Source of the DNA: Cyanidioschyzon merolae
Taxonomy: Eukaryota
Assembly (NCBI GenBank): GCA_000091205.1
Contig: AP006499.2
DNA length: 64,000 nt
Reading direction: 5' to 3' (one strand)
A program made the position numbers and the translations under genes. The number at the start of each line of letters is the position of its first letter. Position 1 is the first letter of the stretch. This document shows positions 2,901 to 62,949 of the stretch, in pieces. Under the pieces are notes generated by a model. The model did not search any database, was not told the DNA's origin, and saw only the letters and a list, made by a program, of their open reading frames with translations.

Positions 2901-3674
2901 ATGGCGTACCGCGGACTTCACGCCTTGTCACAGCCAGCTTATTTAGAGGACTTTATAAACTCAGTTTCGAACCTTCCCCAGGAGTTACGCGACAAATATG
3001 GACGAATGGGAGAGCTCGATGCGCTCGTGCAGCGGTTGAAGAACGAAGCTGACGCGCTCGTTCGGGAGCTGCTGCGAAAGCCTGGCAGTTCAGACCCCGA
3101 CCGAGGTCGCGACACCACTTCGCTGCAGCAAATGGGAACAAAACTTGAGCAGCTGCAAGCTCAGTGTGTAAAGCTCAATCAGGAGAAATTGCAACTCGCC
3201 GAGACGGCGTACAACACGGTGGACCAGCACGTGCGAGACTTGGACACAAAACTGCGGGAATATGAGGCATACCTGCGCCGGGAAGGCCAGTGGCCCGACG
3301 ACCTTCAGAGCCTGGTTGTGAACACCGACCATACGAAAATGGCGTCGATGAAGAACGCTGCTGCTGCTGCTGCGGCAGCACATACTGCAGCGGCTCCTGC
3401 CACGACAGCGCGCTCGACGCAAAAGGCGCCCTCCAAAGGTCAACGCAAGAGTGGCGAACCATCGACATTGCATATCATGGATGATATGCCGATCGATCCG
3501 AATGAACCGCGATACTGCTACTGCCAGAATGTCAGTTACGGGCAAATGGTTGCTTGCGAGAGCGGCGACTGTCCATACGAGTGGTTCCATTTCGAATGCG
3601 TCGGCCTCACTGAACCCCCGAAAGGCGAGTGGATTTGTCCCGACTGCCGAGCCAGAACAGGTCGCGTTCGGTAG
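2901..3674 (+). CDS. ING: ING (inhibitor of growth) family PHD-finger protein
   Basis: N-terminal ING helix (YLEDFINSVSNLPQELRDKYGRMGELD). C-terminal PHD finger YCYCQNVSYGQMVACESGDCPYEWFHFECVGLTEPPKGEWICPDC. Track ORF starts at GTG 2889; the first ATG is at 2901. Contains a poly-Ala tract. Confidence 0.8.
   Translation: MAYRGLHALSQPAYLEDFINSVSNLPQELRDKYGRMGELDALVQRLKNEADALVRELLRKPGSSDPDRGRDTTSLQQMGTKLEQLQAQCVKLNQEKLQLAETAYNTVDQHVRDLDTKLREYEAYLRREGQWPDDLQSLVVNTDHTKMASMKNAAAAAAAAHTAAAPATTARSTQKAPSKGQRKSGEPSTLHIMDDMPIDPNEPRYCYCQNVSYGQMVACESGDCPYEWFHFECVGLTEPPKGEWICPDCRARTGRVR
3356..3379. repeat. (GCT/GCN)n microsatellite inside ING CDS encoding poly-Ala
   Basis: gctgctgctgctgctgcggcagca read directly. 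Confidence 0.85.
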
Positions 3675-9527: not shown

Positions 9528-10722
9528 TTGAAAGGACAGATCCTAGCTACAAAGACGCAAATAGGTATTGGCGCTAAACGAAGACCCAGAAGTTGCTTTC
9601 AACGCTGGGGCACTGACGAGAACAGGGTCCGCGCGTTCACCTGTCGTGAGAAAGAGGACACGCGTCCACCCAGAGCGCTGTCAAGCGCAGCGCACTCCTG
9701 AACGCTTAAAAGCCACTGCGCGCCCACGAGCCCGCTTTCCAAACTCTCAGCACGTTCCTCTGTGCGTAACAATGTTATTTACCAGAAAAAAACGCTTCGT
9801 CTGACTTGAGCAGCGCCTCGTCTCAAACCTTCCACTACAGAGTTTTTCCTACAAGTCGCATTTTAGCTATTTGTGACGCCCGCATCCCAAAGCGCGTTGC
9901 TTCCGTGCGCGCCCCGCACACGGATGCCGCCGCTGTTTAGCATGCGTGTCCGCGGCGTCGAATGCCGCCGCATGCCGAATGAACAGTCTACCAGCGATTG
10001 GGACATAATGGACACCGCCGCTCGAGTCGCCGCTGATCCACCAGCACCACGACATGGACCGGGGGCCTCCCTGGACTGCGCGATAGCAAGCGACATCCGG
10101 GAAGGCGCGCACCACTCTACGCCCCAGCTCCGAGTTCCATTGTTCATACTTCTCATCGGATATGCTGGTCATGTCGTGCGTTCTGTTGTGCCCTGAGTCT
10201 GCAGTGAGCGTTCACTAAAGCGCCCATAGCGACACTGCGAACGCTGCACGGAGACAAAGCGGCTTTGCCAAGCCACTGAGGGGAAGTTGGCTCGAGAAGC
10301 GGCTGCGCATCAAGCGTTACAGGAAAACTCCACTGGAGTTTCGGCAGTGCGAATACCAACATTCCTGGATCGACCAAGCCTCTGTTCACGAGGAGGCAGC
10401 ATCCTCGCATTAGAGCAACGTGGTCCTGGTTCTTGGGGAGCGGAGCTTGCTTCCCTGGGCATTCGTAGCGCTCAGGCATCGGGGAGCGTATCCGGTCAGG
10501 TGTGTTGTGATGTCAGCGCCATGGGGGCAGATGGCGTGCGCGCGCTCCCGCGTCGGCCGCAGCATAGCGTTGACAGCAGGAAACTGCGCGCTTCCATACA
10601 ACGAAGTCTGTACCTGGAAACACTGGTGTTTGTGTCTCGGCACCAGAGACTGAGTACGTGAAGCACTGAGGAATCTTGAATATATAGCAGTGATCCTTGA
10701 ACGAGTCCAAGGTGTAGTACAC

Positions 10723-14046: not shown

Positions 14047-14409
14047 ATAGCTCAGAACGTTTTCCACAGGTTAAGATTGATGCGTGGTACGAGTAGTCTT
14101 CACGGAAACGCGCAGTGATCGGCAATCAATGCGTCGATTCCCGTTCCGCTCGGAGAACCAGCCCCGCACATGGTGCTCAGCGTATCCGAGCGATCTGGTG
14201 CTGCCTCTATGCTGTGAACTTGTGGCGTCAGACATGGTGCTTAGGCGTTTTATGTCCAACGCAACGACATGGCGACGAATGCGTGTATGGAGCGAGCGTG
14301 CCGCTCTCGAGACGCGTTCCTTTCGAGCAGTGCTTCAACGCTGCCGACTACCTTGCCCACGATATCGTTGACGGACGAGGGTTCATGGAACAAGAATGGT
14401 TCGCCACCA

Positions 14410-14928
14410 TCAAGGGTAAATGTATCTACCCGCCCGCAGACGCTTACCAATCTTTTTCAACTGGCCGCCTGCTATCGACTTGCGCTTCTTTTTAGACGCT
14501 TCGAGGATCAGAGGTTGTCCCACAGAGTTAAATCGCGTCAGCTTCTCGGGTCTCGTGTTCAGCACCGCACATCGACTGATGTGGATGGCGGCGTTAAAGT
14601 CCCGGTTGATGAACTCCATGCTTTTGTCGCCTCTGCTTGATCTCATCAATAAAAGGATTCCTGGAACTAGGGCCTTCAGTTCGGGTTGCTGCTCTGTCAG
14701 CTTTCGGTGCTTTTCTATCGCCGACGCGCTCCGCGGCTTTTTCTCCATCTCGAGCTTCTGGAGTGCACGCCCCAGCTCATCCCTTGGATTGTTAAAATGA
14801 ATGCATTTCATTATGCCGTTAGGTAAGGACATCATCAGGGGAAGAAGGAAATCTCGAAGAAAGGCGACACATGCCCCGATGTCACCGAGTGCAGAACGCT
14901 TCAGCGAATCAGCCAGTGGAATGATCAA
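14410..14928 (-). pseudogene. TnpB/Fanzor-like nuclease, C-terminal fragment only (zinc-finger remnant plus RuvC-III)
   Basis: Fragment sequence ...LQKLEMEKKPRS...FINRDFNAAIHISRCAVLNTRPEKLTRFNSVGQ. About 45-50% aa identity by eye to the C-terminus of the 48523..49116 ORF. ORF starts at TTG and is preceded by an in-frame TGA two codons upstream, so there is no N-terminal RuvC-I/II. Confidence 0.55.
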
Positions 14929-17119: not shown

Positions 17120-18007
17120 TCATGAGAGGAAGCGCGTGTTCGCTGCAGCCCACTCGAACAGCAGCGGATGCGCTTTATAAGCTAGATAGACGAAAACCAA
17201 CACCCCAATGTAGGCCGGGCGCAGCATCTCTTGTATTGCGACACGTGGCGACTGCTTCCCTTGCAGCATACTCCAGAAGGGCCAGAGGCTTGTTCGCTCA
17301 GCAAACGCGTCCCAAGTTGCGGCACCAAATCGTTGACGGAGTCGACGATCACCGTGCCAAGCGGCTATAAAGTGATGGCCGATGAGTGCACAACTAACCG
17401 TAATCGCCATCGAACTCCCTATCCAGGCGCCGTGGGCCAGGCACCAGAGGAACTGGCCCCACAGCTGCGGGTGGCGCGTCACACGCATGATACCCTGCTC
17501 GAAGAGGCGGACTGTTGGCCGCTTGATTGCGGATACTTGCGCTAGGTCCAGCGTCGCTGGATACAGAAACAGGAAGGATATGGCGCTTACGACCCAGACC
17601 ATTTCGTGAAAGAAAGGAAAATGTGCGGGGAGGTCCTGTTGCAACCAACTGAAACTGATGCCGTCACGTCGATGAGCTAGGAAGTAGGCCACGGTTACAC
17701 CAGCTGTTGGTAGGGACATGAACGCGAAGAGCACGCGGTAGAGACGCTCGCCGAGAAGCTCAGCGGCCCTGGGGCGCAATGCAGCACCACCAGAGTGCAG
17801 CACAGCGAACACGGTATACAGAACTAGCATTCTTAAGTGCGTGTCGAGGTTGACCTGGTCATGCCAACTCCAGTAGGTCGGCAGTAACCATCCGAGTCCG
17901 AAGAAAGCGCAACCCAGCCACAGTGCAACCTGTGACTCGCGTCGACCTCTTGATGTCTGTTGAGCTGCAGCGGTCTCTGCGGAATGCCCCGAGTCGACGT
18001 TGCTCAT
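17120..18007 (-). CDS. NnrU/ICMT-like polytopic membrane protein (RHP-motif family)
   Basis: C-terminal motif GIMRVTRHPQLWGQFLWCLAHG with several TM helices, resembling the NnrU / Z-ISO / isoprenylcysteine-methyltransferase fold. Track ORF extends to TTG 18460; I anchor at ATG 18007 (MSNVDSGHS...). An upstream extension to ATG 18193 is possible. Confidence 0.4.
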   Translation of the reverse strand: MSNVDSGHSAETAAAQQTSRGRRESQVALWLGCAFFGLGWLLPTYWSWHDQVNLDTHLRMLVLYTVFAVLHSGGAALRPRAAELLGERLYRVLFAFMSLPTAGVTVAYFLAHRRDGISFSWLQQDLPAHFPFFHEMVWVVSAISFLFLYPATLDLAQVSAIKRPTVRLFEQGIMRVTRHPQLWGQFLWCLAHGAWIGSSMAITVSCALIGHHFIAAWHGDRRLRQRFGAATWDAFAERTSLWPFWSMLQGKQSPRVAIQEMLRPAYIGVLVFVYLAYKAHPLLFEWAAANTRFLS

Positions 18008-19019
18008 GCGGCACGGGGACCGGCTCAGAGCGAACAAGAAAGCATTCGCTTCGTAGCGCCTGTAGTGATACGATCCTCGTTTTGCTGCTGCAGGTACTGC
18101 TGTTATGCCAGCTCGTGGCGCACAGAGGAGCCAGGATCGCCGTCGACTTGCGGTGAGTCCGACTGGAATAAAGCAGAGCGCCTTTGCTGGCATCTGACCG
18201 CTGAGGTGTCGCTTCTGAGGACTCGCCCGGAGGCGCTCCAATGCCTGGGCGCTCCGAACACCCCGGCGCTCAAGCGTGAAACCTGCGCGTACGCTAAACC
18301 AAGCGCAAAGAGCGGGGCGAGTTCCGGACCATGACGTCGCCAGAGGTATCAAAGTCGGCGCTTCGCCAGGTCTGCGTTTATGCGCATTCATCCTCCGTAG
18401 CACACGGCGGTCTTCGGTACTCATATCCGGATTGCAGCAAAGCGAACCTGGAACGCCCAATATACTTCAGTCTTTTCGGTATGAAACCAATGTAGTGCAA
18501 CCTATTCAGACTTCGATTTATCTGATCACAGGTTATCGGGTCCGATACAAGTGGTTGGAAAGCGAATTTTTCGCAGCGCTCGCACACAACCCGTCGCTCC
18601 AAAGCGTTTCTTCACCGTGTTCTGGGCAGTTCGCGCGAGCGCTGCTCGCTCTCCGGGACCCTGACTCGATACGTGCCGTCTCTTGCGCGCTCTGGACGCT
18701 TCTTCTCACGAGAAGCACCGCTGAGGCACGCTGTAAAGCGCAACACGCTAGTGCGAAGCGCTGGAACCGTCACTCTCGAAGCGCCTCCTGAGGGGAAACG
18801 CTTTTCGATGCGCGTTCCGCGAGCCTCCTTCGAAAAGATAACGCAATCGAACCTATTCTTCTACTACTCGGGTACCTCGGAAAGCACCGTTCGAGTTCGT
18901 CTAGTGTTCCCAAAAGTTGACCCGAGTCCCGCCTCGGGCTCCGCTGGTGAGGCAGCAGGCAGTAGCGGGAACGGCGCGACGCGTTTCGCCGCCCTCGCTG
19001 TAGCCAGCTTGCGCCATAC

Positions 19020-23351: not shown

Positions 23352-24752
23352 TCGCACCGAGGTACGCTCGAAGGCGGTTCACCTGGTGCGCTTTCGGATG
23401 CTACTCGAGGATGCAAACGGAGACGCAACGAGTAGCCCGCTTGTCGCTGCCGCCGCCGCTGCTGCTGCTGCTTCTGCTGGTTGTGGTGGATAGGGTGATG
23501 GTCATGGTGCGCACGCGCTTACGTTTCAAACGTTGCTGAGAGCTGCACCCTAAAGAGCGCCGCTGTTGCTACGATCTTCTTGGCTTCGGGGTGTGAGCGT
23601 GCAAGCCGCACTGCGTATCGCGATGCGTCCCGCTGGACACCACAGACATCAGGAGGCCGCGAGTCGATATACTTAGTGGTATGACAAAGCCGTTCTTTCT
23701 CCGTGCTACGCTCGTACGCGTGCTGCAGCACGAATGCAGATGCTCATGGACGATGCGGGGTAGGGTAAAACCCACGACACCATCAGCATCATCGACAGGA
23801 GGTCTGGGTCATGAAAGTTGGGAAACAGGGCGTAGAATGCTGCTGGGCGCTTTCCCGGATGCCGATATTCACCACGCAGCCACGAGAATACCTGGTCGAC
23901 GTAAATATTCTGTTGATCGGAGAAAACAATACCAGCGTCCTCTGCCCGGCTTGTCGCCGGTATGCACCCATCGAGGAGCGTGTGATTCGGTGGAACGACC
24001 CCAGACACCTGAAGCAATGACCCGGGATGAACGCTCGAAGCTTGCCTGGGCCTTGGAAGCGCACTCGTGCCCTGGAGTCAGCATCGATACGAAGAAGAGC
24101 GCTGCATTGCCCGACTGATTATGTTGCGGCATTCGCAGCAGACGATGATTCCTGTGCGCTTCGTTGCTTATGGATTATCTGGTTCCTTTTTTCAGTGGTG
24201 ACATGCTTAGCGAGTGGCAAGGTATGGTCAGCGCTGACTGCACATCACACGGCTGCATTGCCGGATTGGAAATACATCCAAGAGCGGCATGCTCATTCAT
24301 GTTAGCCGGCTGGAAGAAACGCATGGAACACGCAGACGCGCGTGTGCGTCTCCTGAAACACTGCAGCAAACCGCAGCAGCTTCATGATGATCCAAGAAGC
24401 AAGCAAAATACCTGGCATGCTGTTGAGCGCTGAGCGCTCTGACGCACGAAATACCACGTGCTTGGATCGCACACCGAAGGTGTCATGATAAAGCGATGCG
24501 TCGTGGGGTATTCACCGAGTTGTCGATTTCTGTGCGAGCAATATCCGGAGCACTTGCTTTTTTCGAATTTATATATAACGATGCGGGGTCGAGTATGCGA
24601 TACACACGCTTTGTTCATGGATGCTCGCTTGCGGGGCAAGTCATGTTTGGTGTGCGTCGTGCGCACGACGCTGGCGGTTGCTAACCTGTCTGTGTGGCGA
24701 GGTATCGTCGCTGTCCGCCAGATACGTGGATCGCGATGCCGTAACGCCCTCG

Positions 24753-25127: not shown

Positions 25128-28100
25128 CCAGGCTGTCCGTTTCCTGAGTCTCGACGCGACGCAACTGCCGTGCTGGATTGCTGATCCGTTCGACTCTAGT
25201 GCCTGGTTCCAGACTTCAAGAATTCCCGCTCTTCACTGATGTTTTGTCATCGAAAGTCGTTACCGATTCAGCCCAGTATCCACTTTGAATACGAAATGAT
25301 TCCCTCGAATGGTCGCTCTCGATACAAAGTTGCTGGATGCTCCCGGAGCACGGAATATTCCCGGATATGTTGATCGGAGCGCTCTTGTCGTGATGCAGAA
25401 TGTGCTTATGTGGATGATTGCTGGTGCCAGCACAACATGGCAAGCCTCTCATCATCGATTATCTCCCTGTCTGGCACTCGGTCGGCTCACCGTAGACCAC
25501 CCGGTGTGTCGGGCTGTGTTCCAATTTCTTTTTCTCCAGCAGTTTCAGCGTGCACTCGAGCGCCTCGCATCTGTACTGCATCATGAACGCATCCATGAGA
25601 ATCTTCTGGAATCGATTCCTGCATCCGCTCGACGCGCTCTTCGAAGGGCCACTGGTGCAACCGATGTTTGCTATAGAGTGCCCATCGCCAGAAGCTACCA
25701 ACAACGGTCGACACGACTAGCAGGTCATTTTCTTTTGCAAGTCCTCAAACAAAAAGTGGTGAATGCGCGCTTCTTGCTTCCGTGGAGCGTAAATCGTTGG
25801 CGGCTTCAGTTGCGTTTGGCGTGCCCTTGGTCGAGATCGTCCGCAAGAGCCGTTTGGACGCGTATGCACGCTCTCGTAAAATAGAGCGTACAAAGCATCC
25901 GCCGCTGCACACTCGGGTGCGTCGAGCAGCGAGCTTATTCCTCATGCCGTCATTCCAAGTGTTGGTATGTGTCCAGGAGTCTGCCATGCGCGAGGTTTGG
26001 CGATCACGTGCCCTGGAACAGTTAAGCGGTATCACGTTCCTTCCTCTTGAGGTCTTTGGTTGCGTCTTCGTGATCTAAACGCACAGCAACTGCGACGATG
26101 TTCTTAAACTCAAGAAGCCCGCTCACCAGAGAATCTTTCTACCTTGAACGGTAACCAGTGGGTTGCTTTGTGTCACGTATGCCAGTGCTTCCCAAAAAGC
26201 GCATGCAGACTGGTATTCCATTGGTCTGCACCATCCTGATAAACTGCTTCCTGTTCCTTGCTGTAACCGAGATACCTTGAACGAACGCCACCAATGCTCT
26301 TCACAATAATATCCCTGAGCTTCATGCATGCTCCTAGGGACCAGCCGTCGCTCACTAAGGAGGCGACACCGCACAGCGCAGTACAGAAGTACATACGGTG
26401 ATGTCATGGACTTGGATCTGAAATGTAGGGACTCAGTTACGGGGATACTTTGGGATGCCTGGGCGCTCGCATATGGAGGCTAGGACCATTTTGCTCTGAT
26501 TTTGAAGCTTACGATTCAGGTTTAGGTAGCAGGGCAAGATGCAAGGAAGGCAGGCATCACCTGGCAAGTATCCTATGGGTACAGCGTCCGTCGATGCGAG
26601 GCTATGAACTACCCGATGCGCGTGGACGGTGAGAAACGACGCTCGCTCTGGTAAAGAGGTCACTTTCGAACTCGCTACCACCTCGAGCTCTTCCGTCGCA
26701 ACTTGCGCATTATTCGGCTTCATCGCCACCCGAAGAACCCGTTGCAAAACTTCACATTGTTCTTGCCTACGAAGACGAGGCCACCAAGGGCGCAACGCTG
26801 ACAGCGTGCGCTTCGTGAAGCGCTCGAAATTGACCCGCATCTGTCCTTGGTGTTGATGTTGTTCTTGTACTTTTTCGTATCGTAATTGGAGATACTCCGA
26901 TTGGCGTCACGATGCGACCATACGACAAGCTATTCAGGGCGACACGAGCACGACTCTACGATGCTATGATCAGGCTGTACTGCATTCCGCGTCCCGCGAG
27001 TCAGTTGTGTTGTCGGATGCGGGTTTCGTTGAAGATTTCTCGCGTTATGTGGGTATCATTCAGTTCTGTGTCAGGAAATGCTGCGAATCGTTGTTTGGCG
27101 AGCTGTTCCATGGCGAGACAAACTGGGTGAGCCTTCTTCGATCGAGAAGCTACGCGACATGTGATGATGTCATGCATTCCACGTTTAGGAAGATGCTCCC
27201 GGTTGATGTGTTTGAATAAGAAGACATTGACAAAGGTTTCAGACTGATCTCCGCAATGCGGCAGGTTCTCCTGTCCTATGCCTCCGCGGTTCGTTTTCAT
27301 AAGGATCCTCCTCTTCCATCACAAGTGATCCCTTTTTCTCTTTCGCTTGGCGGCGTAGCATAGATATGATCGCTAGACACCATATCGGGTTATTTTTCGA
27401 GCGATTCAGACGCACTGGGCGGACAGTGCCACTGAAACCCGCATTTCGTATGCATATATATAGATATGTAGTATACCCTACGAAGCTTGCCGTCACCTTT
27501 CCGGTCGCGAGCACGCCCACGGACTGAAGCGCACTTCTGCGGTTCCTCACCTGCTCGGGCAGACGACCGACCCAGCAGAGCAGAGCTCATGAAATTAGAG
27601 AAGCAATTGCCCAAGAACTGCGTTACGGATGCAATCAACTCGATGATCGATGCAAGAGCATCAATGGTGCATGTGACAACAGCGAAAACGCTTTCAACTG
27701 GATTGAGTCGTAGAGAGTACGCTGGGAAGCTGTGTCGGTTTAACGCCAACCTCAGCTGCATGCTCTTTGACCTCTTCTGCGTGATAGGAAACGATGAAAA
27801 CCATGAAGAGTTCGGAAGAACTCGGTAATGGGCATTCACGAAGCGGTTCCCGACGAAGATTTTGCCGTTGAACGATCCTAATCGTTGAAGGCTATCTAGG
27901 CGACCACACTGGTGATCCGCTAACTGGGCCGCTGTTGTCGGCATGCTCGCGTGCCTCTTCTTCACGAAAAGTGATTTGTTTTCTGTTTGAGTTCTCGCAT
28001 ACAGGTCAACCTTCTCATCCCTGTAAAGTCGTATCGAGTGAGACGAGCATGTATCCCTCTTGCAACAAGCGTTCGTTAGTCTGTACGCATTCAACAGAGT

Positions 28101-45400: not shown

Positions 45401-45758
45401 CGCATATGCGCATGCAGCCACTGAAGCAGGCCCTGTTGGGCTCAGATGATCTGAGTCATTCGGAACTGCAATGGCCTCCGAGCGAACGCACCTCCCTGTC
45501 GGACGGCTTTGAGCGGCGCGCATGCGGCAACAGCTGCAAGTGTTCTCGGATGGCATGCTGCTGCTTGTGACGTCTAGCGGCGGGCAGTAGTGCCAGTCTA
45601 GTACTTTTGTGTAGGTCGACGGCTGCCGCAGACTCATGAAGCTGTGTGACCCAAGTCACGATTTGTAACGGATACTGGACAGCGCACTCCAGGCGGCCAC
45701 CGAATCTCCGCAAAGTAGTCAGGACGACGGGACGTACAGTGCTGTGTGGCTGGAAGCG

Positions 45759-46415
45759 TTACGGCAACTGCAGTGCCCGAAGTCGTGCACTCAGATCGGC
45801 TTGCTCCTGTTGCAATCGTTTCCTCTCCTGGGCCTGAGCGAGGTCACGTTGTAAAAGTGGTAAAGTAGGGGCCGTTCCCAGCGCATGACTTAGCTCGAGG
45901 TTGTTCTCCTCTGCCGTTTGTCGAATAAGAAGAGCGACCTCATCCTCCTCGGGTGTCTGACTCGCAACCCCGGCGCTTACACGATCAAGTCCACTATTTA
46001 TGAGAACGTCGCGAACCTGGACGTCGTCCAAGCGATTCTCCAGGAGCTGAAGCGAACTCTCCAAGCGCTCCACGTCAAGCACGCGAATAGCGCTATCCAT
46101 GTCGGAGGCGAGAAGGCCCATTTCAGAGCCAATCTGGCCCAAGTCGCGCGCTGCTTTGAGACGTCCCACGACTGCGTCTAGACGAGCCGCCAGTCGCAGA
46201 TAGGTCGTGCGCTCTCTCGCTTTGCGAACAGCGCTCTCTGCAGAGACCACGCTCATCTCCGCGTTTCCCGACTTGAGCGCTGCCTTGAGCTGCTCCACGT
46301 ACCGCTCTCTCTCGCGTTGGCAACGGTTTGCTTGACGTCGCAAGTGTTTTTCCAAGAGAAGCAGCTTGAAAATATGCTCTTGGTATCTTTTTGAGGACGA
46401 CTGGGCGAGTCCCAT
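45759..46415 (-). CDS. Snf7-family ESCRT-III protein (CHMP-like)
   Basis: 218 aa, ATG start. Basic N-terminal half and acidic C-terminal half. Helical pattern ...LRRQANRCQRERERYVEQLKAALKSGNAEMS..AVRKARERTTYLRLAARLDAVVGRLKAARDLGQIGSEM typical of CHMP/Snf7. MGxxxS N-terminus as in Vps20/CHMP6. Confidence 0.6.
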   Translation of the reverse strand: MGLAQSSSKRYQEHIFKLLLLEKHLRRQANRCQRERERYVEQLKAALKSGNAEMSVVSAESAVRKARERTTYLRLAARLDAVVGRLKAARDLGQIGSEMGLLASDMDSAIRVLDVERLESSLQLLENRLDDVQVRDVLINSGLDRVSAGVASQTPEEDEVALLIRQTAEENNLELSHALGTAPTLPLLQRDLAQAQERKRLQQEQADLSARLRALQLP

Positions 46416-48012
46416 GTTTTAGGAAACAACCAAGAAAAGTTGCAGGAGAAACAAATGAGCGCACACGTGTGCTGTCTCCGAACACCGCTCCGGTACCAGC
46501 CCCATCGTTTGCGAACGGCCGCCTCTGGACAGCAGCGGCAACGGACAGCAGCGGCTAGATGGAGCGCTAAGAATCGGCCTTAACTGAGCGCGTTGATTTT
46601 TTCGATGACAAAACGTTTCACATGGGCCATGGATCTCATATCGCGGGACGGATCATGGTAATCAAAAAACGTGTATCATACTGCCACACGCTACCTCCGA
46701 GTCCCATTACTTATACTTCCCTCGGATATACTGATGGTTTCGTATGTTCTATCGATCGCCGATTACCTGCCGTGAGCACCCGCCGTAGCGCGTATACCAC
46801 CGATACGGATGCTGCACGGAGACAGAACGGCGTTGCGATACCACTGAGGGCGTCGGATCGATGTGTTTTTATAGGACATGGAATCGGAATCCCTTGCCAT
46901 TCTGGGAGCTTGCCGCAGCGGGGAGCGATATACCAGAAGACCACCGCGACCAGGGCGACGCTAAGACGCAGCATACCCACTCCTTGTTCCAGAAGAAACT
47001 GCGTTGTGGACGAGTTGCTCGGGTTTCGCTAAAGCAACAGCCAATGGGGCGATCATGCAACACAGGCCCGATAGACTCGTCCGGCTCGCGGGACCTTCCG
47101 CCCCGGGGGTAAACTATCGGCAATAAAGAAAGCCTTCCCCATTTTAACTGTTATCGCACAGGGGGAAGCAATCGTAATTTCGTTGCCAGTTAACGATTCG
47201 TTTCTGTTCCTTGTTCTATGCGGTGCGGTTGAGCAGCGCACCTGGAGATCTGGCGGTCACGAGATCGCGAAAAATATCGCACCTACCGCTTCAACCTTAG
47301 TCGATACGAGGGTGACCAGGATATTTACACCTACGGGGCCGTGAAGTACCTCACGAATCTGAAGAACCATTTGACGATGAACCTTGAATGTTTCATGATA
47401 CGCGCCGTGTTTGCGCTTTACGCGGGTATCTCTTGCAAGGGGATATGGGCGATTATCAATGGCATCACGAACGGTCGCAGGTATGAAGATGAGGTCGCAT
47501 TCGTGGACATGAGGGTATCAAACGGCAGCACGAATGAAGCTTCTGTGATCCGTGCGGTTATACAAGAGCACCGTGCGGTACTGGGGTTGGCGAATCCAAC
47601 AGACAAGATATCAGCGTTGAAAAAAAGATAAGGAAAGATACTATCGCCTCGTCCTGCGCTATTTTGTGTTTCTGGACCGAGAACTCGAACGCAAGGCACA
47701 GGTGGAGCTAAGTGAGGAAAAAAATGAAGAGTGGGAGAGACGGAAGGCTGCGCTTCTGGGGAAGCGCTTCAACGTGGTTCCAATGTGCAACATCAAGTCA
47801 CATTTTATGACTATCGGCTCCGGTGTCCTCTACGGCATCATGAGGGAGATCAGTCCCGAGTTTGATGTTAGCAGGGAGGAGTTCTCCGGTGAAGTCCGGG
47901 AGACGTACTGGAAAAATATCTTCAATTTCAAACGTCTCAAAATGAGTAAACAAAAGGTATTCACTGGAATGATCGAAACCGATGGGTAGCCATATGTGTA
48001 CACTATCGGCGA

Positions 48013-48486
48013 TTGAAGGCAGATCGTCCAGTTCCGCCCTCAGCTGCGCCCGTGACGAAGGATGCAGAAAACAAAGAGGCGGATTCTGCGACGCAGGAGG
48101 TCGAGGATTACGACCTTGTCGTTGACGCGGGGAAGGATGATGATGAGAAGAATGCGGATCCTGTGATGCAGAAAGTGCAGGATAACGACTTTGTCGTTGG
48201 CGCGGACCCTGGGAATACGAATATCATGAACATTGCAGTACCCAGGCGTGGGGAAGATGGTACTGACGGTAATTTACGTCAGAAAGACATGCGTTTTTTC
48301 AGGTTCTCGAGAGCGAGATACTATCGGGAATCGGGAATCATGAATGCGAGGAAACAATTCGAGATATGGAATGCAGGAGTGAAGGATCACCTGGAAGCGA
48401 TGAGCGAGGTGACTAGCCGAGGAGAGGACTTTAAAGCTTTTCGGAAATTCATAGAAGTTCGCATGGCGCACTGGGATGCGCTATGA
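48013..48486 (+). CDS. Fanzor/TnpB-like nuclease, RuvC-I-containing segment
   Basis: [18 protein letters not shown] matches the G-x-D-x-G RuvC-I motif of TnpB/Fanzor. ORF begins at TTG. Separated from the next segment by a single TGA. Confidence 0.5.
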
Positions 48487-48522
48487 GAGGAGTATACCAA
48501 GCCCCGGTGGGCTCGTCTGCGT

Positions 48523-49116
48523 ATGAATCTGTACTCTGGGAGGCAGCGGGCATTTGCCAACTTTTCCAATGAGTTGAGTGCCCTGAAGGACGACGAGGGT
48601 CAGAGGCTCGTTGTAGCATACGGAGCAGGGCACTGGAAGACCCAAAAAGGGACTACGGCAGCTCCAACAACAAGAACGTACAAAGAGTGTGCGCAGCGTT
48701 TGGTTACAGTATCGATCGTTGAGTTCCGAACGTCCTATACACACCATGAGCTAGGGTGTATACTTCAGAAGGTGGAGATGGAAAAGTGCCAGAGGAGCCC
48801 TGAGGATATGAAAAAGTACGGACCGCTGACGGAGGAGCAAATGGAAAGGAGAGCGAAATTTCGTGGACTACTTGCATTAGTGAGTACAACCACCAACGGC
48901 ACGAAACGTACGGATTTTGTGAACCGAGACTTTAACGCCGCTGTCAATAAAAGGAGATGTGCGGTGCTGGAAAGTAGACCTTCAGAGCTGACAAGAGAGA
49001 ACTTTGTTGGACAATCTCGAAAATATGAACTATACGAGAAAAAATTGGAAGCAGTAGTGGGTGGCCGGTCCAAAAAGACCGGGAGGCGACTGCACCTCGG
49101 GAAGCGTCTTGTCTAG
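48523..49116 (+). CDS. Fanzor/TnpB-like nuclease, RuvC-II / zinc-finger / RuvC-III segment
   Basis: VVAYGAGHWKTQKG (GNW-like), VEFRTS (RuvC-II Glu followed by TS), NRDFNAAVN (RuvC-III). Lys/Arg-rich C-terminus. Confidence 0.55.
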   Translation: MNLYSGRQRAFANFSNELSALKDDEGQRLVVAYGAGHWKTQKGTTAAPTTRTYKECAQRLVTVSIVEFRTSYTHHELGCILQKVEMEKCQRSPEDMKKYGPLTEEQMERRAKFRGLLALVSTTTNGTKRTDFVNRDFNAAVNKRRCAVLESRPSELTRENFVGQSRKYELYEKKLEAVVGGRSKKTGRRLHLGKRLV

Positions 49117-49190
49117 GGCGGGCTTCTCGCCACTACTGTACACCGGGCGCGACTCGTGCGGAACGCTCACTCACTCTCTCTGGAACCTGT

Positions 49191-49454
49191 ATGGTTCATG
49201 CGACCAAAGGGTACCTGGTGCGCTGTGATGTACCGATGAAACAACTGCTGCTTCACTTGGATCGAGAAGAACACTTCATCATCTGTGATCTCGATGAAAA
49301 ACACCTTTTCGTGAAGGAGGACGCGTTGTCGCTGATCCAGCAGAGCGTGGAAGCGCTCTACGATGAAGTATACTATGGGCCCCAAGAGCCCGGACCCCGA
49401 CGGCAGCGGGCAGGCGCTTCTACTGGAACCGGAACGCAAGAGTCGCTAGACTAG
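49191..49454 (+). CDS. TFB5: TFIIH subunit TFB5/p8 (TTDA/GTF2H5)
   Basis: MVHATKGYLVRCDVPMKQLLLHLDREEHFIICDLDEKHLFVKE aligns with human p8 [25 protein letters not shown]...KFIIQDIDDTHVFV. ATG start at 49191. Confidence 0.75.
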   Translation: MVHATKGYLVRCDVPMKQLLLHLDREEHFIICDLDEKHLFVKEDALSLIQQSVEALYDEVYYGPQEPGPRRQRAGASTGTGTQESLD

Positions 49455-49788
49455 AAGCGCGGCCCCTGTTGGACGAACGAGGCTCCTCGGCAGCGAAGCA
49501 CGCGTTGTCGCAACGAGCCGTAAGACTTTTCGTGGGACACCAGTCAGGTGAAGTATGCGCAGCGCCAGTGCCCCCAAACCAGCGCCTAGTTATGAGCCCG
49601 CAGCACTGCATAGCCTGCGAGCATTCAATCAATGGACGCAGGGTCTTAGTTTTGAGCTCGTCTTCCCTGAGCCTTGGAACGGACTAGGGCGCCGACCTGC
49701 GGTCGCCTCGAAGAGACAGCCACCTGGCCAATCGGTAGAGATGGTGGATTCCCCATATACTCGCATACGTTGAACGCAGTTGTAGTCG

Positions 49789-52700
49789 CTAGGACTGCTT
49801 CGAATGGAGCGCAACTGGGTTCATTTTCAGCTGAGCGCCCAACAACTCAGATGTTAGCGCGGTACGCTCTGCCTCATACGGAGACGGGACGGAGACGCGG
49901 AGCAGGCGTAACATGCCGACGACAGCCCAGAGACGACTCCGTAGATTGCGCTTCGAAGACTCGCTCCAGAGAGAAGATTGCCCATAGATTGCCTGTTGAA
50001 TTCGAGCGCTTTCTCGAGTGCATGCGCACAGGTCCATTCGCTGTAAAGCCACTGCTGCATGGCAGAAAACGCGGAATCGCCTCCGAGACTGGGCACAGCG
50101 ATCCTTCAGCTGGACGGAGGTCGCCGCGCTGGTTCCCATCCTACTACTTCCACTGCTGCCACCGTGGGCATCATCTTGCGCATTGGATATCGTGGGTAGT
50201 GCTGCGGTTATCTGTGCAAAACCCGAATCCGCTGGTGCCGCAGCGGACTGCGGTTCGTTGCCCATTGGAGCATCGCCCAGCCGATAGTTGGTGCCGGCTT
50301 GGTAGCGTCTCAAGTTCCGTTGCATGAGCTGGTGGCAAAGTGCTTGCCACAGGCGACCCGGTTGATGAACCCATGAGACTGGGCACAAGCGAGTCAGGAA
50401 ACCTATAGGCAGCTCGAGGCCGGCAATCAGGAGACCTGCACCCCACTGAGCGCCCGACAGATTCACGATGCCGACTGACTGGCCAACCGCAGTGCGACCG
50501 AGCACCTCCACAAGGACAACCTGTATGACAGCGGAACCGAAAACAATGCATAGGAAGAGACGTGCGCGACCGATACCTTCGAAAACATGCCGTTCGGCAA
50601 TGCGTCGACTGTTCAGCTCTGATACAAGTTGCAGGAATACAAATGTGTTAAAGATAAATCCATTTCGCTGTAGCGTCTGACCACCGCAAGGATCCGAAGA
50701 CGTAGAAACCGCGTAACAAGGAATATGGAACAATGGAACCGTCACGAATAACAACGTTATCATCACCGCAAGTTGATACAGCGCGATGCCGAGCATGTTC
50801 CGCACCATGGCGGGCGTTATGAGCGGCGCGTTCCGGCCTTGTGGTGGCTGCTGCATGAGTGCGCTACGTGGTGCCTCTGTGGCCAGGGCGAGCGCTCCAA
50901 ATGAATCCATCACTACATTGACCCATAGAAGGGGCACTGTGGACAGCGGTAGCGTCATGCCGGCACACGCGCTGAACAGGTCGAGCGTCACCGCAACAAT
51001 ATTCACAGTCAGCTGAAACTGTAAAAATTTGCGAATGTTCTCCAACACATTCCGACCCCAGAGTACCGCAGCAACAATAGACCCGAGTCGATCGTCCAAC
51101 AGCACCACATCAGCAGCCTCTTTCGCGAGCTCTGTACCAGACACACCCATTCCGAAGCCTATATCGGCTTCACGCAGGGCAGGCGCGTCGTTGCTTCCGT
51201 CCCCGGTTACCGCCACGACTTGTTCGAGCGCTCGAAAAAGTTGCACCAATTCGAGCTTATCTGCCGGGGTTGCACGTGCGAGCACGCGCATTCGCATCGA
51301 AACATTTTGCTGAACGGCACGAGGTAGTTGGCGAAATGCGGCCGCATCCCATACCAGCTGCACTGGGGAGGATCCCGGCTCTAGCAGCTCTGCCGCCTGT
51401 GCAATCTGCGTCGCCGTTTGCACACTATCTCCAGTGACCATACGAACGAAGACACCGGCCTGTTGCAGTGCCCGCACCGACGCGGCGGTATCGGGTCGTA
51501 GCGGATCGCTCATTCCGAAAATGCCCAGCAGAATCAATTCCGTTTCAGGCGGTTCGTTCACACCCGGGAGGTTCCCTGTCTCTGCCGGTTGCTGTTGGTC
51601 CCAGAACGCAACCAGGAGCATTCTGAGTCCCTGCTCCGCAAAAGCTTCCATCGCACTGCGGTACGCGTTGCGCTTGGACCAACTCATTCGCGTCAATGCT
51701 CCGGTACGGCAATTCATTTCGAGGACACAACGCTCGAGCAGCTGATCGGGGGCTCCTTTCACGTGCAAGCGTTCCAAACGACCGTCTGGTGCGAGCTGCT
51801 CAATGCTGCACATTTGCTTGCGAGTGCTGTTGAAGAGGTAGACACGACGGAGCGAGGAAGCGGCGCGCAGCTCCCGATACGAAATTCCCATGCGATGCAG
51901 CAGCTCCAAGAGCGCACATTCCGTGCGGTTGCCAATGTACTCCACAGTGCCATTCTGTTGATCACGCAAGTCAGCTTGGCTATTGATGGCGATACAACTA
52001 GCTAACAAGCGAAGATAGATGGGTGAAATGGTGCGCCGCTGCAGCAGATCGCTCAGCGAGCCCGCCGGTAGCGCAGCCTCCGTTACTCGGAGCTGATTCC
52101 AAGTCATTGTACCAGTTTTGTCAATGTTGAGCTGCGTTGCAGAGCCCATCGTTTCGCAGGCTTCCAGACGACGCACCAGTATGTTCTCTTTCATCATTTG
52201 ACGCATGGCAAAGGCCAGACTCAGCACGACGGCAAGCGGGAGTCCCTCGGGGATGGCGACAACCGCGATCGCTATCGCGGCAGTGATACTCTCCGTGAGT
52301 TTCATAATAGGCCATGAGCCGCTCCGAATGGAATCTACCAACCAGCGAATAAAGAGCACGCCAAACACGAGGAACGCTAGACCCAGTCCAATGTAACCGA
52401 TGGAGCGGGCGAGACGGTTCAGTCGAACCTGGAGTGGCGTCTGTGGTGGCGTTGGGCGCAGGCTTGTCAACAGCTGGCCCCAGACTGAGTTCATGCCCAC
52501 TGCAACAGTGAGCATGGTACCGAATCCACTCGTAACGATGGTTCCCGATAGCACGAAAATGTCCGCTTCTTCATGTACCGATGGTGGAGCAGGCGATACG
52601 TCGTCGCCATCTGCATGCAGCTGTATAGTAGCAGTCGTCTTAGCAGCATTACTTGCCGCGGCGGCGGCGGCAGCAGCAGCAGGCCTATCGAATGCACCTG

Positions 52701-60417: not shown

Positions 60418-62949
60418 GAGTATTCAGAGCGTTCCGAGGGACCTCAGCGACAAAGGGCGCTCTCTGGACAGCGGGCACCACAGTCTCTTCGCTGTGCTAC
60501 TGCGGACGATGCTGAAGAGCTCATTGCGCAAACTGCTCACGTGACGATCACCTTGAGTTTTCGCTCCAGCTGATGAAATACGCACACGCGGGTTCGAACG
60601 TATTTCGCGGTGTACCTGGTCAGCATCGGTAGCGTGTCCTGAAAGCTGTTAGAATGGTGAGTCACTGCTTCTGCTGCATGCTTATTTTTCAAAGATATTC
60701 CAACTATATGATGGTTAGAGGTCTGGCTGCTATGCCCAGCGTCACTGTTTACGTCCATTTCTCGAAAAAATGGGGTGTCGCCGACTCCGAGACGCGGACC
60801 CAGGTAGAGACGCTTCCAAAGCGAGATCATGGGCGCTCTCCCACAGACCTTCTCTGTGAAAGTGCACCCACTGCCGGGATCGAATTCGCCGGCAGAGACC
60901 AAGTGCGAGCTCCCGGTACCTAGATTGCAAGCGTCGGACCATAGAATATTTATGGTCTAAATAGTCCTGAACCGTATGATGGGACAGCAGCAGCTCGATT
61001 TCCTCTCTCCAGATTGCTGATGAGTGGTCCCAGCGCCAGCCGCTGGAAACCTGACGGTGACCAAACTTGACCTGGAATCTTGCGCAGTGCACTGCATCCC
61101 CTGTTCATGCTGCAGCGTGGACGCTGCGTCAAACCCTTGCATAGAGCTTGACTTGCGGTCCGGAACGCATTCGCCACGATCCTGCGTATCGGTTCAGTGC
61201 AGATGGTACGTGCTCAAACGCTCCATTTATATAAAGTACTATCGAATCATGGAGCTCTACTATCGATCTTTACTTGCATAGGGGGCCGTTCTCAGCACGG
61301 TCACATTCGGCGCTCCAGACTGCCTGCATTGCGGACCGTCCCTCAGCAGTGCCTTGCGCTTGCCGAGCATCCAGGTCTTTCGCTCGTCGCCAGTGATTTT
61401 TTCGTGGCAAGGCTTCAACGTTTCAAGTCAACGCCTGAGCAGAGTACTTTGTGATTCCGTTGGATGTTCGCTGGACACAGAGCCCATAGATGCTCCTGAA
61501 GCACGGAGCGTTTGCGGATGTTGATGGCGGTGTTCAAGTCTCCGTGCAGAATATGCGTTCTCGCGTGGTGACTGCTAGACGCATACCATAACATGCTTCT
61601 AATTTTCGATTGTAACGCCATCTGCCGCTAGCTGAGCCTCCCAACAGCAAACTTGTGCATCCCGTGATGTTTCACACTTTGGTTTCCTTTCTACAACAGG
61701 AAGCACCTGTGCTCCCAACGCATGAATGCCGCCCAGAATGCATCCATGGGGATCGTACGGAATCGATTCCTGCACTCGTTGGGTGCTCTCGTCGATGAAG
61801 CGGCAGTGCAGCGCTCGTGCCCTACAACACGTCCAGCGCTACAGCCTATCGCCAAACAGCACGACTTGTGCGTCATTTCCTGTTCCGATTCTTCGGTAAC
61901 GTTTCCGCATGCCCGCTTGTTGCTGCTGCCGCCATGGTACCGATCCCTTTCGCGATCCTAGAGCGCTCACGTATACTCCTGACAGAGAACGTACGCGTGA
62001 GCTGTTTGGATGTAGATGCACGTCCTGATTGGAGTGTACAGGGTATCTCGACCGTGTCGATAAAGCGTTCAGGGAGTCTAGAGCGATCCTGGCGCTTCAT
62101 GACACGCGCTGGAATGGCTCCTGGTGGACATCATACCGAACCGCCAATGATACCGAGCCTGGAAAAATTGAACAGATCAGTCTGCTTTCTTTCTGAAGTG
62201 TTCGCCCTCGTCCTCTATGTTCAGAGGCAAGGCGACGGCCATGATGCCCTTCAAAACGGGATCCACGCGCACCATGAAGAGTCTCTCTTCATCTACCTTG
62301 ATCAATTCCAAATGAGTATCTTTGCTAGACTCAGATCTTGGTTTCACAACATACATGCAGTGTGAAATGCTGTCAATCTCCATAGACCAGTGAGCGTCGT
62401 TCCATCTATTTCCTGTAAACGAGAAGCCTTGAACGAGCTCCGCCAATACAGTTTGCAGCGTAGCTCGATCATTTCATACTGTCTCGCAGAGAGCAGCCTT
62501 TTCTTCGCTTTCTATCCTACTCGGCCAGGTGGCGTGAGCGCAATAACCTAACACAATATCCATTTCTTTCTCGGGATTCAGACACAATAAGTGGACGATG
62601 CGGCCTGACCTCGCCTTTTCAATGTCTGCATGTATCTATTCTTGCTTAAGAACATTTTCGCCACCGTCGTGAGCACACAATCGGACCGAAACGCGCATTT
62701 CCTCTCCCGTCCGCGCACGCCTTCAAACCCTGCAAAGCAGATCAGAGCTGGTGAAGATCGAGAGCAAATTTTCAAAGAATGGAATTACGAATGCGAATGA
62801 CTCGTCTATGAATCCGTGAGCGCCTAAAAGGTGCTCCGCAACTGGGAAGCCGCCTTCGATTGGATTGAACTAGGGAGAAGAGGTTGAAATGAAGGGCGAC
62901 GCATCGCCAACCTCAGCCGCATACTCCTTGATCGCATTTGATTGATCGG

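Follow-up and report, generated by a model that had tools for sequence, protein, structure and literature searches.

The 64,000-nucleotide stretch of DNA analyzed here (the window) contains a run of open reading frames (ORFs) that together resemble a gene of the TnpB/Fanzor family, raising the question of whether the locus is a working gene interrupted by introns or the remains of one. The DNA comes from the nuclear genome of Cyanidioschyzon merolae 10D, and six proteins encoded in the window are identical to BAM82214–BAM82229. A preliminary description of the locus had proposed that a eukaryotic chromosome here carries a transposon gene of the TnpB/Fanzor family, and profile comparison, fold comparison, and identity with the consensus of a published element, CMe-1A, all bear this out.

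Identity and extent of the element

We compared the locus by BLASTN with the CMe-1A consensus from the supplement of Bao & Jurka 2013 (PMC3627910), and positions 46,591–c.49,166 on the + strand proved to be one copy of this Fanzor1 element. The matches are collinear: consensus 1-688 aligns with 46603-47264 (75.4% identity), 1350-2196 with 47284-48130 (88%), and 2117-3139 with 48126-49145 (87%). The coding part is 87-88% identical to the published consensus over 1.87 kb, and the 5′ module is more diverged (75%). E-values of 0.0 in tblastn comparisons place the similarity far above chance. The best explanation, and one that we hold with little reservation, is that a decayed, non-autonomous copy of CMe-1A, a Fanzor1-carrying element family of C. 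merolae, lies at 46,591 to ~49,166 (+).

As published, the family has a consensus of 3,169 bp, some 150 copies that are about 80% identical to it, no terminal inverted repeat (TIR), and a single-exon 734-aa ORF that some copies retain intact (Bao & Jurka 2013, PMC3627910). A complete element of ~3.2 kb consists of a ~690-bp non-coding 5′ module, the 734-aa Fanzor1 ORF in one exon, and a short hairpin-bearing 3′ end. Family, host, copy number, and Fanzor1 protein were all published in 2013 (Bao & Jurka, Mob DNA 4:12, PMC3627910), and the locus is an ordinary relic of this known family.

The preliminary description had placed the gene at 47341-49160. The copy is indeed there, but the element is larger, running from ~46,591-46,603 to 49,145-~49,166. 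Repeat coverage begins at 46591-46605, and 80 related loci share ends there and at 49143 or beyond. A T-rich stretch from ~46591, upstream of the first consensus-aligned position at 46603, is common to other copies, and the right end is placed between 49145 and about 49170. At one related locus, L093, homology stops exactly at 49145, which made it a candidate for marking the right boundary; beyond that point, however, L093 has the 3′ flank of another copy (L038/L039 type), and we take it to be a chimera created by assembly through the repeat rather than a boundary. Terminal inverted repeats and a target-site duplication had been proposed as signs to look for, and neither is found at the element ends. 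A search for inverted repeats returned only three 12-nt chance matches, none of them at the ends, and comparison of left with right flanks revealed no target-site duplication for the window copy or for a related copy, L034. The target-site duplication of CMe-1A was likewise not determinable by Bao & Jurka 2013 (PMC3627910).

The insertion site is intergenic, between a Snf7-like gene and TFB5 (consecutive accessions BAM82228 and BAM82229), and the relic is unannotated: of three relic ORF products looked up, none is present in a protein collection that includes the NCBI C. merolae 10D annotation. The element ends ~25–45 bp upstream of host TFB5, which starts at 49191. The element has a strong purine skew and a GC content of 0.48-0.51, against 0.55-0.60 in the DNA around it.

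Structure and decay of the copy

The left end and 5′ non-coding module occupy 46591..47265 (+), as defined by repeat coverage, an 18-copy left-end alignment, and the match to consensus 1-688; this module equals TE-N2_CMe (Bao & Jurka 2013, PMC3627910). It stops at 47265..47266 (+), where an internal deletion has taken out ~650 bp; this breakpoint was located by comparison with the consensus and with a related copy, L077, in which the two sides of the breakpoint stand 653 bp apart. The deletion removes consensus ~689-1332/1349, and with it the ATG at consensus 906, the first ~145 codons, and a basic NLS-like N-terminal stretch.

The coding region survives on the + strand as three remnants identified by tblastn. 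The first, at 47269..47625 in frame 1, corresponds to approximately CMe-1 residues 149-268 (68-69% identity to the relatives P0001/P0002); the second, at 47621..47986 in frame 2, matches at 78-80%; and the third, at 47986..49116 in frame 1, runs through RuvC-I/II/III to the family's normal stop codon, TAG at 49114-49116 (64-76%). Point lesions were defined by DNA alignment against nine related copies. The remnants are separated by an A7 run at 47620..47626 (+), which is A6 in all nine and causes a +1 frameshift, and by a 1-bp deletion in a G-run at ~47986 (+), which reads GATGG-GTAGCC instead of GATGG[A/G]GTAGCC and causes a −1 frameshift. In DNA and protein alignments a third lesion, at 48484..48486 (+), changes TGG to TGA at the Trp in ..HWDALWEEYTKPRW..; this codon is TGG in seven of the nine related copies and in the consensus, GGG in one, and TAG in one. 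Exactly one TGA and one frame change had been noted at the outset; the TGA and the frame change near 47986-48013 stand, but the extra A at 47620-47626 is a second frameshift. Within the third remnant, at 48051..48205 (+), a unit of ~78-81 bp that codes for an acidic peptide repeat (..ATQEVEDxDLVVDA..) is tandemly duplicated, the two copies of the unit having diverged. The duplication was recognized by double BLAST coverage, consensus 2117-2196 matching the region twice, and was not detected by Tandem Repeats Finder. P0001 carries more units of this repeat.

The 3′ non-coding end, at 49117..49166 (+), was delimited by aligning 48-53 right ends and comprises a GGGCG..CGCC hairpin and a CACTACTGTACACCG box (to 49145). 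The consensus terminates in ...CACCGCTGGCGGCAGCGTTTTTCTTTTGAAAGGCG, and past 49145 the window copy has GGCGCGACTCGTGCGGAACGC, a degenerate remnant of the terminal hairpin that closes the consensus and most other copies. The window copy and the consensus are alike in host genome, left end (CGATGACAAAACGTTT...), stop position, the 3′ box CACTACTGTACACCG, and the lack of TIRs. They differ in that the window copy lacks ~689-1349, has an extra ~80-bp unit, and bears two frameshifts, a stop codon, and the degenerate terminal hairpin.

With two frameshifts, a stop codon, and no start codon or N-terminus, the copy is dead as a protein gene and cannot make a protein. In contrast to full CMe-1A, it belongs to a deletion subfamily that is also found at other sites: the same internal deletion is present in L025, L033, and L034, which have other insertion sites and unrelated flanks. 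Since the deletion is common to paralogues at other sites, the copy was inserted as an already non-autonomous derivative, and the two frameshifts and the stop codon arose after insertion of this start-less form. That such a derivative was still mobilized implies a transposition function supplied from elsewhere in the genome.

The lower GC content had been taken as a sign of a horizontally mobile or recently inserted element. The compositional difference is real, but the insertion is not recent, judging by the 12-25% divergence of the copy from the consensus and by its presence in nine environmental contigs that are 99.0-99.5% identical over 45700-49800. The TGA and the additional A are present in all nine, and the 1-bp deletion is confirmed in four, the search string being unmatched in the other five. 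No empty site was found in related strains, all ten contigs with the neighboring Snf7 gene having the insertion.

The CMe-1A family encodes a Fanzor1 protein

We located the catalytic motifs among the + strand ORFs (47341-47631, 47666-47989, 48013-48486, and 48523-49116). RuvC-I (GADPG, 48199-48213, D codon 48205-48207) lies in ORF 48013-48486, and both RuvC-II (IVEFRTS, 48715-48735, E codon 48721-48723) and RuvC-III (NRDFNAAVN, 48922-48948, D codon 48928-48930) lie in ORF 48523-49116. The ORFs and motifs reported earlier are therefore present, but the motifs are carried by two ORFs, not three. The expected alignment of D/E/D to catalytic positions is found: the residues match the DPG, DE[FY][RK]TS, and NRD motifs of PpFz and SpuFz. 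Numbered D398, E569, and D636 in an intact relative, P0061, they are invariant or nearly so among 99 family sequences and are still encoded in the window copy.

Searches with single sequences failed to link the family with Fanzor. Neither the joined protein nor any individual ORF was assigned to a family by Pfam (E <= 10) or NCBIfam, the best PDB match by phmmer with a single sequence was SpuFz1 at a non-significant E = 0.55, and a 10-sequence profile gave 0 matches in the PDB. The relatives P0001 and P0071 reached E = 0.23 and 0.013 against OrfB_Zn_ribbon / Cas12f1-like_TNB, at 12-16 bits against a cut-off of 26.3. The connection comes only from a 99-sequence family profile and from fold comparison. 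Searched against the PDB, this profile finds PpFz1 (Parasitella, E = 2.2e-19), SpuFz1 (Spizellomyces, E = 2.9e-11), and GtFz1 (E = 0.16). For the fold, we used an AlphaFold model of P0061 (pLDDT 92, pTM 0.89), which is 40% identical and intact, rather than the broken window copy. In Foldseek against the PDB, the top seven matches of this model are all Fanzor1 cryo-EM structures (E 2e-17 to 1.5e-15, TM 0.52-0.74), followed by Cas12f at E 1e-4. SpuFz1 (8gkh, 9ceu), PpFz1 (9cf0), and GtFz1 (9cer) share the fold of the model at TM 0.55-0.74. Profile matches to solved structures, fold comparison, and identity with the published consensus together show that the family is a true Fanzor1.

The family shares with the solved Fanzor1 enzymes DPG at RuvC-I, the D-E-[FY]-[RK]-T-S glutamate, NRD at RuvC-III, and a TDG strand upstream of RuvC-I, whereas sequence identity to them is only 11-16%. 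Like prokaryotic TnpB (IS200/IS605, IS607), CMe-1A pairs a RuvC D-E-D nuclease with a mobile element; unlike TnpB, it has no significant Pfam match and no TnpA partner present. At RuvC-I it has DPG where TnpB has D-hydrophobic-G; according to Yoon et al. 2023 (PMC10711439), Fanzors and TnpBs can be told apart by this signature. The clade comprises 4,407 clusters at E <= 1e-3 in a representative library and includes intact members of 600-700 aa, whose N-termini, rich in basic residues, we read as putatively NLS-like.

The clade lacks the C4 zinc finger

A C4 zinc finger is part of the conserved Fanzor/TnpB motif according to Bao & Jurka 2013 (PMC3627910). SpuFz has a CCCC finger of the form CPRC...CxxxxC and PpFz has CPKC...C, whereas the finger is absent from the whole CMe-1-like family. 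Between RuvC-II and RuvC-III, even one CxxC occurs in only one of the 112 family members in which this segment is recognizable and none in the window copy, and the published CMe-1 protein also lacks the finger. Because it is missing family-wide and from published CMe-1, and because Yoon et al. 2023 (PMC10711439) ascribe it to 'many' Fanzors rather than to all, we read its absence as a probable clade trait and no bar to Fanzor1 membership. One published Fanzor/TnpB survey used search patterns requiring CxxC...CxxC, and searches of this kind would miss the CMe-1-like clade.

The 3′ end and guide RNA

An ωRNA had been predicted at 49117-49190 and downstream. This interval is mostly outside the element and runs into TFB5. 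Rfam gave no match in the whole window or in a permissive scan of 48500-49300, and a tRNA scan of the whole window was also empty. RNAalifold on 49 right ends produced essentially no consensus structure. Hand-picked helices contain 13 compensatory-change cells vs 5.8 expected and are 84.2% paired vs 83.3% in shuffles, and a structure derived from the minimum free energy (MFE) shows covariation no greater than shuffles; the copies are decaying neutrally, so covariation has little power in both comparisons. Folding of the consensus 3′ end is somewhat more stable than that of shuffled sequences (MFE -63.1 kcal/mol, z = -2.2), and in the consensus CAGTAGTGGGTGGC, within the ORF, is complementary to GCCGCCACTACTG, directly past the stop codon.

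An intact Fanzor1 would bind a transcript of its own element's right end and would cleave DNA that pairs with the guide portion of this transcript. In TnpB elements, too, the right end is the source of the guide RNA, a likeness to CMe-1A by analogy only. We infer this RNA-guided step for CMe-1A only from homology with the solved Fanzor1 enzymes, because no 3′ RNA structure is supported by covariation. It is conceivable, although we lean against it, that intact finger-less members, among them those of C. merolae, a thermo-acidophile, may have RNA-guided nuclease activity, with a guide RNA that might extend over the final ~150 nt of the ORF.

Alternative explanations of the locus

The interruptions had been suggested to be spliceosomal introns in an otherwise intact Fanzor gene. 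Introns occur in Fanzor genes of some other eukaryotes, and all three catalytic residues are still encoded here; however, C. merolae has very few introns, and the large genes in the window are all uninterrupted ORFs. Moreover, the interruptions are single-base changes relative to the nine related copies with no sequence inserted between the pieces, the published CMe-1 ORF is one exon, and the internal deletion has removed the start codon together with about 145 codons. We consider introns extremely improbable. We give equally little credence to domestication of the surviving 197-aa ORF (48523-49116, RuvC-II + RuvC-III) as a host gene fragment. This ORF is open from an ATG start, and metagenome gene callers call its 197-residue product in eight of ten orthologous contigs. 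Yet it lacks RuvC-I and so cannot form an active site, the protein collection with the NCBI 10D annotation has no entry identical to its product, and it is simply the stretch from the TGA lesion to the family's normal stop.

Somewhat less remote, but still very unlikely, is that the relic, dead as a gene, supplies a right-end RNA that is loaded by intact CMe-1 from elsewhere, with the TFB5-side flank as guide. Over its final ~230 bp the relic shares 87% identity with the consensus, whose 3′ end has the z of -2.2 given above, and intact ORFs persist in some CMe-1A copies (Bao & Jurka). Against this, no structure is backed by covariation or matches Rfam, and 3 bp are missing from the 3′ region of the window copy, whose terminal hairpin is also degenerate. 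A decayed, non-autonomous CMe-1A copy remains our preferred reading.

Other Fanzor1 relics in the window

The locus had been regarded as the sole programmable-nuclease candidate in the window. We found at least three more Fanzor1-derived relics at other loci, all on the - strand, at 14392-14835, 25294-27249, and 61418-62470.

Identity and setting of the element

The locus holds a dead copy, with an internal deletion, of CMe-1A, an already known transposon family published in 2013. CMe-1A was described in C. merolae as a Fanzor1 element with ~150 copies that are ~80% identical to a ~3-kb consensus (table entry: 3169 bp, single-exon protein of 734 aa); it has no terminal inverted repeats, its target-site duplication was not determined by the authors, and its first 635 bp are the same as another repeat, TE-N2_CMe (Bao & Jurka 2013, PMC3627910). 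Aligning the consensus from the supplement of that paper to the window, we found consensus 1-688 at 46603-47264 (75% identity), 1350-2196 at 47284-48130 (88%) and 2117-3139 at 48126-49145 (87%). Consensus 2117-2196 is matched twice, reflecting an additional ~80-bp repeat unit carried by the window copy. Independent mapping of 80 related metagenome loci shows repeat coverage beginning at 46591-46605 and ending at 49143-49160, in agreement with these limits. With the joined protein as query, 75 close relatives were recovered at 52-79% identity, together with several intact ones (617-699 aa, 28-40% identity).

The 5' non-coding module (46603-47264) is clearly further from the consensus than the coding part (75% vs 87-88%), and two related metagenome loci, L025 and L034, likewise show 78% vs 84-88% against the published consensus; the deletion subfamily to which they belong may carry a different variant of this module. 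The 5' end of the element also contains a palindrome, AAACGTTT.

Both strands of the surrounding DNA encode eukaryotic genes that lack introns, among them ISWI, Sec24, OST3/6, FGAR amidotransferase and a P-type Ca-ATPase. Six window proteins are exactly identical to proteins of C. merolae strain 10D in the range BAM82214 to BAM82229, bearing out the proposed eukaryotic chromosome as that of a red alga. The element lies between a Snf7-like gene (BAM82228, 45762-46415, minus strand) and TFB5 (BAM82229, 49191 to 49451 or 49454, plus strand; TFIIH subunit, 87 aa, Pfam Tfb5). Since these accessions are consecutive and none of three relic ORF products is present in a protein collection that includes NCBI, the relic is unannotated intergenic DNA. 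TFB5 starts only ~25-45 bp past the right end of the element, so the insertion is directly upstream of it.

Decay of the coding region

An ORF scan gives four plus-strand relic ORFs (47341-47631, 47666-47989, 48013-48486 and 48523-49116). Three-frame translation places the RuvC motifs GADPG at 48199-48213, IVEFRTS at 48715-48735 and NRDFNAAVN at 48922-48948 (all plus strand); the motifs are thus present as first reported, spread over two ORFs rather than three, and the catalytic D/E/D are all still encoded. The region has a strong purine skew and is indeed AT-richer than its flanks (GC 0.48-0.51 vs 0.55-0.60).

Reading the interruptions against nine related copies, we found an extra A (A7 vs A6) at 47620-47626, a base missing in GATGG[A/G]GTAGCC at 47986, and TGG changed to TGA at 48484-48486. 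The preliminary description had recognized the TGA and the frame change near 47986, both of which are real, and had missed the frameshift at 47620-47626. It had also suggested introns; the interruptions are single-base lesions with nothing inserted between the coding pieces, and so are not introns. In addition, consensus ~689-1349 is absent at 47265/47266. This internal deletion removed the ATG (consensus 906), ~145 codons and the basic N-terminal stretch; the N-terminal third of the protein is entirely absent.

Fanzor1 membership and the missing zinc finger

The family was elusive to single-sequence searches: Pfam and NCBIfam scans found no family, phmmer against the PDB gave a best E of 0.55, and a 10-sequence profile had no PDB match. 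A profile of 99 relatives matched the Fanzor1 of Parasitella (E = 2.2e-19) and Spizellomyces (E = 2.9e-11), with the DPG, DE[FY][RK]TS and NRD motifs in register with the solved Fanzor1. The AlphaFold model of P0061, an intact relative (pLDDT 92, pTM 0.89), has Fanzor1 cryo-EM structures as its seven best PDB matches (E down to 2e-17, TM 0.52-0.74), followed by Cas12f (1e-4). Profile search and fold comparison thus confirm the TnpB/Fanzor assignment made from the raw sequence. The predicted catalytic residues (D398, E569 and D636 in P0061) are invariant or nearly so in the 99-sequence alignment. The family is a large one, with 4,407 clusters reaching E <= 1e-3 in a representative library.

Among 112 members in which the segment between RuvC-II and RuvC-III could be recognised, only 1 contains a CxxC there, and a single one; the published CMe-1 protein has none either. 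The whole CMe-1-like Fanzor1 clade lacks the CxxC...CxxC zinc finger, a classical feature, at this position, whereas the finger cysteines are present in the solved SpuFz and PpFz structures. Saito et al. described a conserved CCCC finger for Fanzors; Yoon et al. reported a zinc finger in "many" Fanzors and used search patterns that require it (PMC10711439). A survey with such patterns would have missed the CMe-1-like clade.

Age of the deletion and of the insertion

We compared window 46603-49145 with L025:3305-5914, L033:3194-5620 and L034:3305-5915. All three metagenome loci have the same ~650-bp deletion (consensus 688-1332; no start codon) and the same extra repeat unit, and their unrelated flanks place them at different genomic sites. 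The deletion is therefore older than the window insertion, and ORF-less derivatives were still mobilised, so the transposition function must have come in trans from another source. The window copy was accordingly already non-autonomous when it inserted.

The insertion itself, previously suggested to be recent, is old. It is present in 10/10 contigs carrying the neighbouring Snf7 gene, among which there is no empty site. Nine of these are 99.0-99.5% identical over 45700-49800 and have lesions in common: the extra A and the TGA are kept in 9/9, and the 1-bp deletion was confirmed in 4/9, the exact search string having no match in the other five.

Another metagenome locus, L093 (ENA ERZ27247228 k141_774381), is 95.8% identical to the window locus up to exactly the CACTACTGTACACCG box; beyond its position 3267 (window 49145) it continues into DNA that flanks another CMe-1A copy, of the L038/L039 type, on the 3' side. 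L093 probably arose by chimeric assembly across the repeat, although ectopic recombination could also have produced the junction.

The 3' end and a possible guide RNA

The TAG that closes the ORF in the window (49114-49116) is also the usual stop of the family. It is followed by a GGGCG..CGCC hairpin and the box CACTACTGTACACCG; the consensus, like most copies, then has a terminal hairpin with the variants GGCGTCGTTCGACTTTCGAACGGCG or GCAACGTTTTTCTTTTGAAAGACGTT, both of which pair, and past it the copies diverge. This hairpin is a candidate transposition signal, terminator or guide-RNA part. Right-end variants from the metagenome loci were aligned to window 49100-49195. Two terminal-hairpin variants, GGCGTCGTTCGACTTTCGAACGGCG and AACGTTTTTCTTTTGAAAGACGTT, differ much in sequence, each being self-complementary over 10-11 bp, and a third right-end variant, TACTGCCGACCGCAGC, is hairpin-less.

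An omega-RNA had been expected at 49117-49190 and downstream. Because the window retains only a degenerate trace of the terminal hairpin past 49145 and TFB5 begins at 49191, most of that region lies beyond the element. On the model of TnpB and Fanzor, a guide-RNA scaffold, if any, would be expected to overlap the 3' end of the ORF. Rfam gave no match and RNAalifold found no consensus structure on the right ends. Covariation was no better than shuffles for the MFE fold and marginal for four hand-picked hairpins, a test of little power because the copies decay neutrally. For the final 180 nt of the consensus, the predicted fold has an MFE of -63.1 kcal/mol (z = -2.2) and includes a long-range helix of CAGTAGTGGGTGGC in the ORF with GCCGCCACTACTG past the stop.

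Other relics in the window

The locus had been taken for the only candidate in the window, which is wrong, since tblastn and BLASTN within the window revealed further Fanzor1-derived relics. These are a CMe-1A 3' fragment (14392-14835, minus strand; 54% amino-acid identity to the relative P0017), TE-N2_CMe-like pieces of the 5' module (10098-10296, plus; 23672-23878, minus), a heavily decayed, nearly full-length relic (25294-27249, minus) and a decayed C-terminal half (61418-62470, minus) whose RuvC-II glutamate is lost (DAFWA). The last two have many stops and are much older, with 27-37% amino-acid identity to intact relatives.

Elsewhere in the window, an ORF at 17120-18460 (minus strand) encodes an NnrU domain (Pfam E = 2.9e-32); this domain is found in plant and algal 15-cis-zeta-carotene isomerase, consistent with a photosynthetic host.
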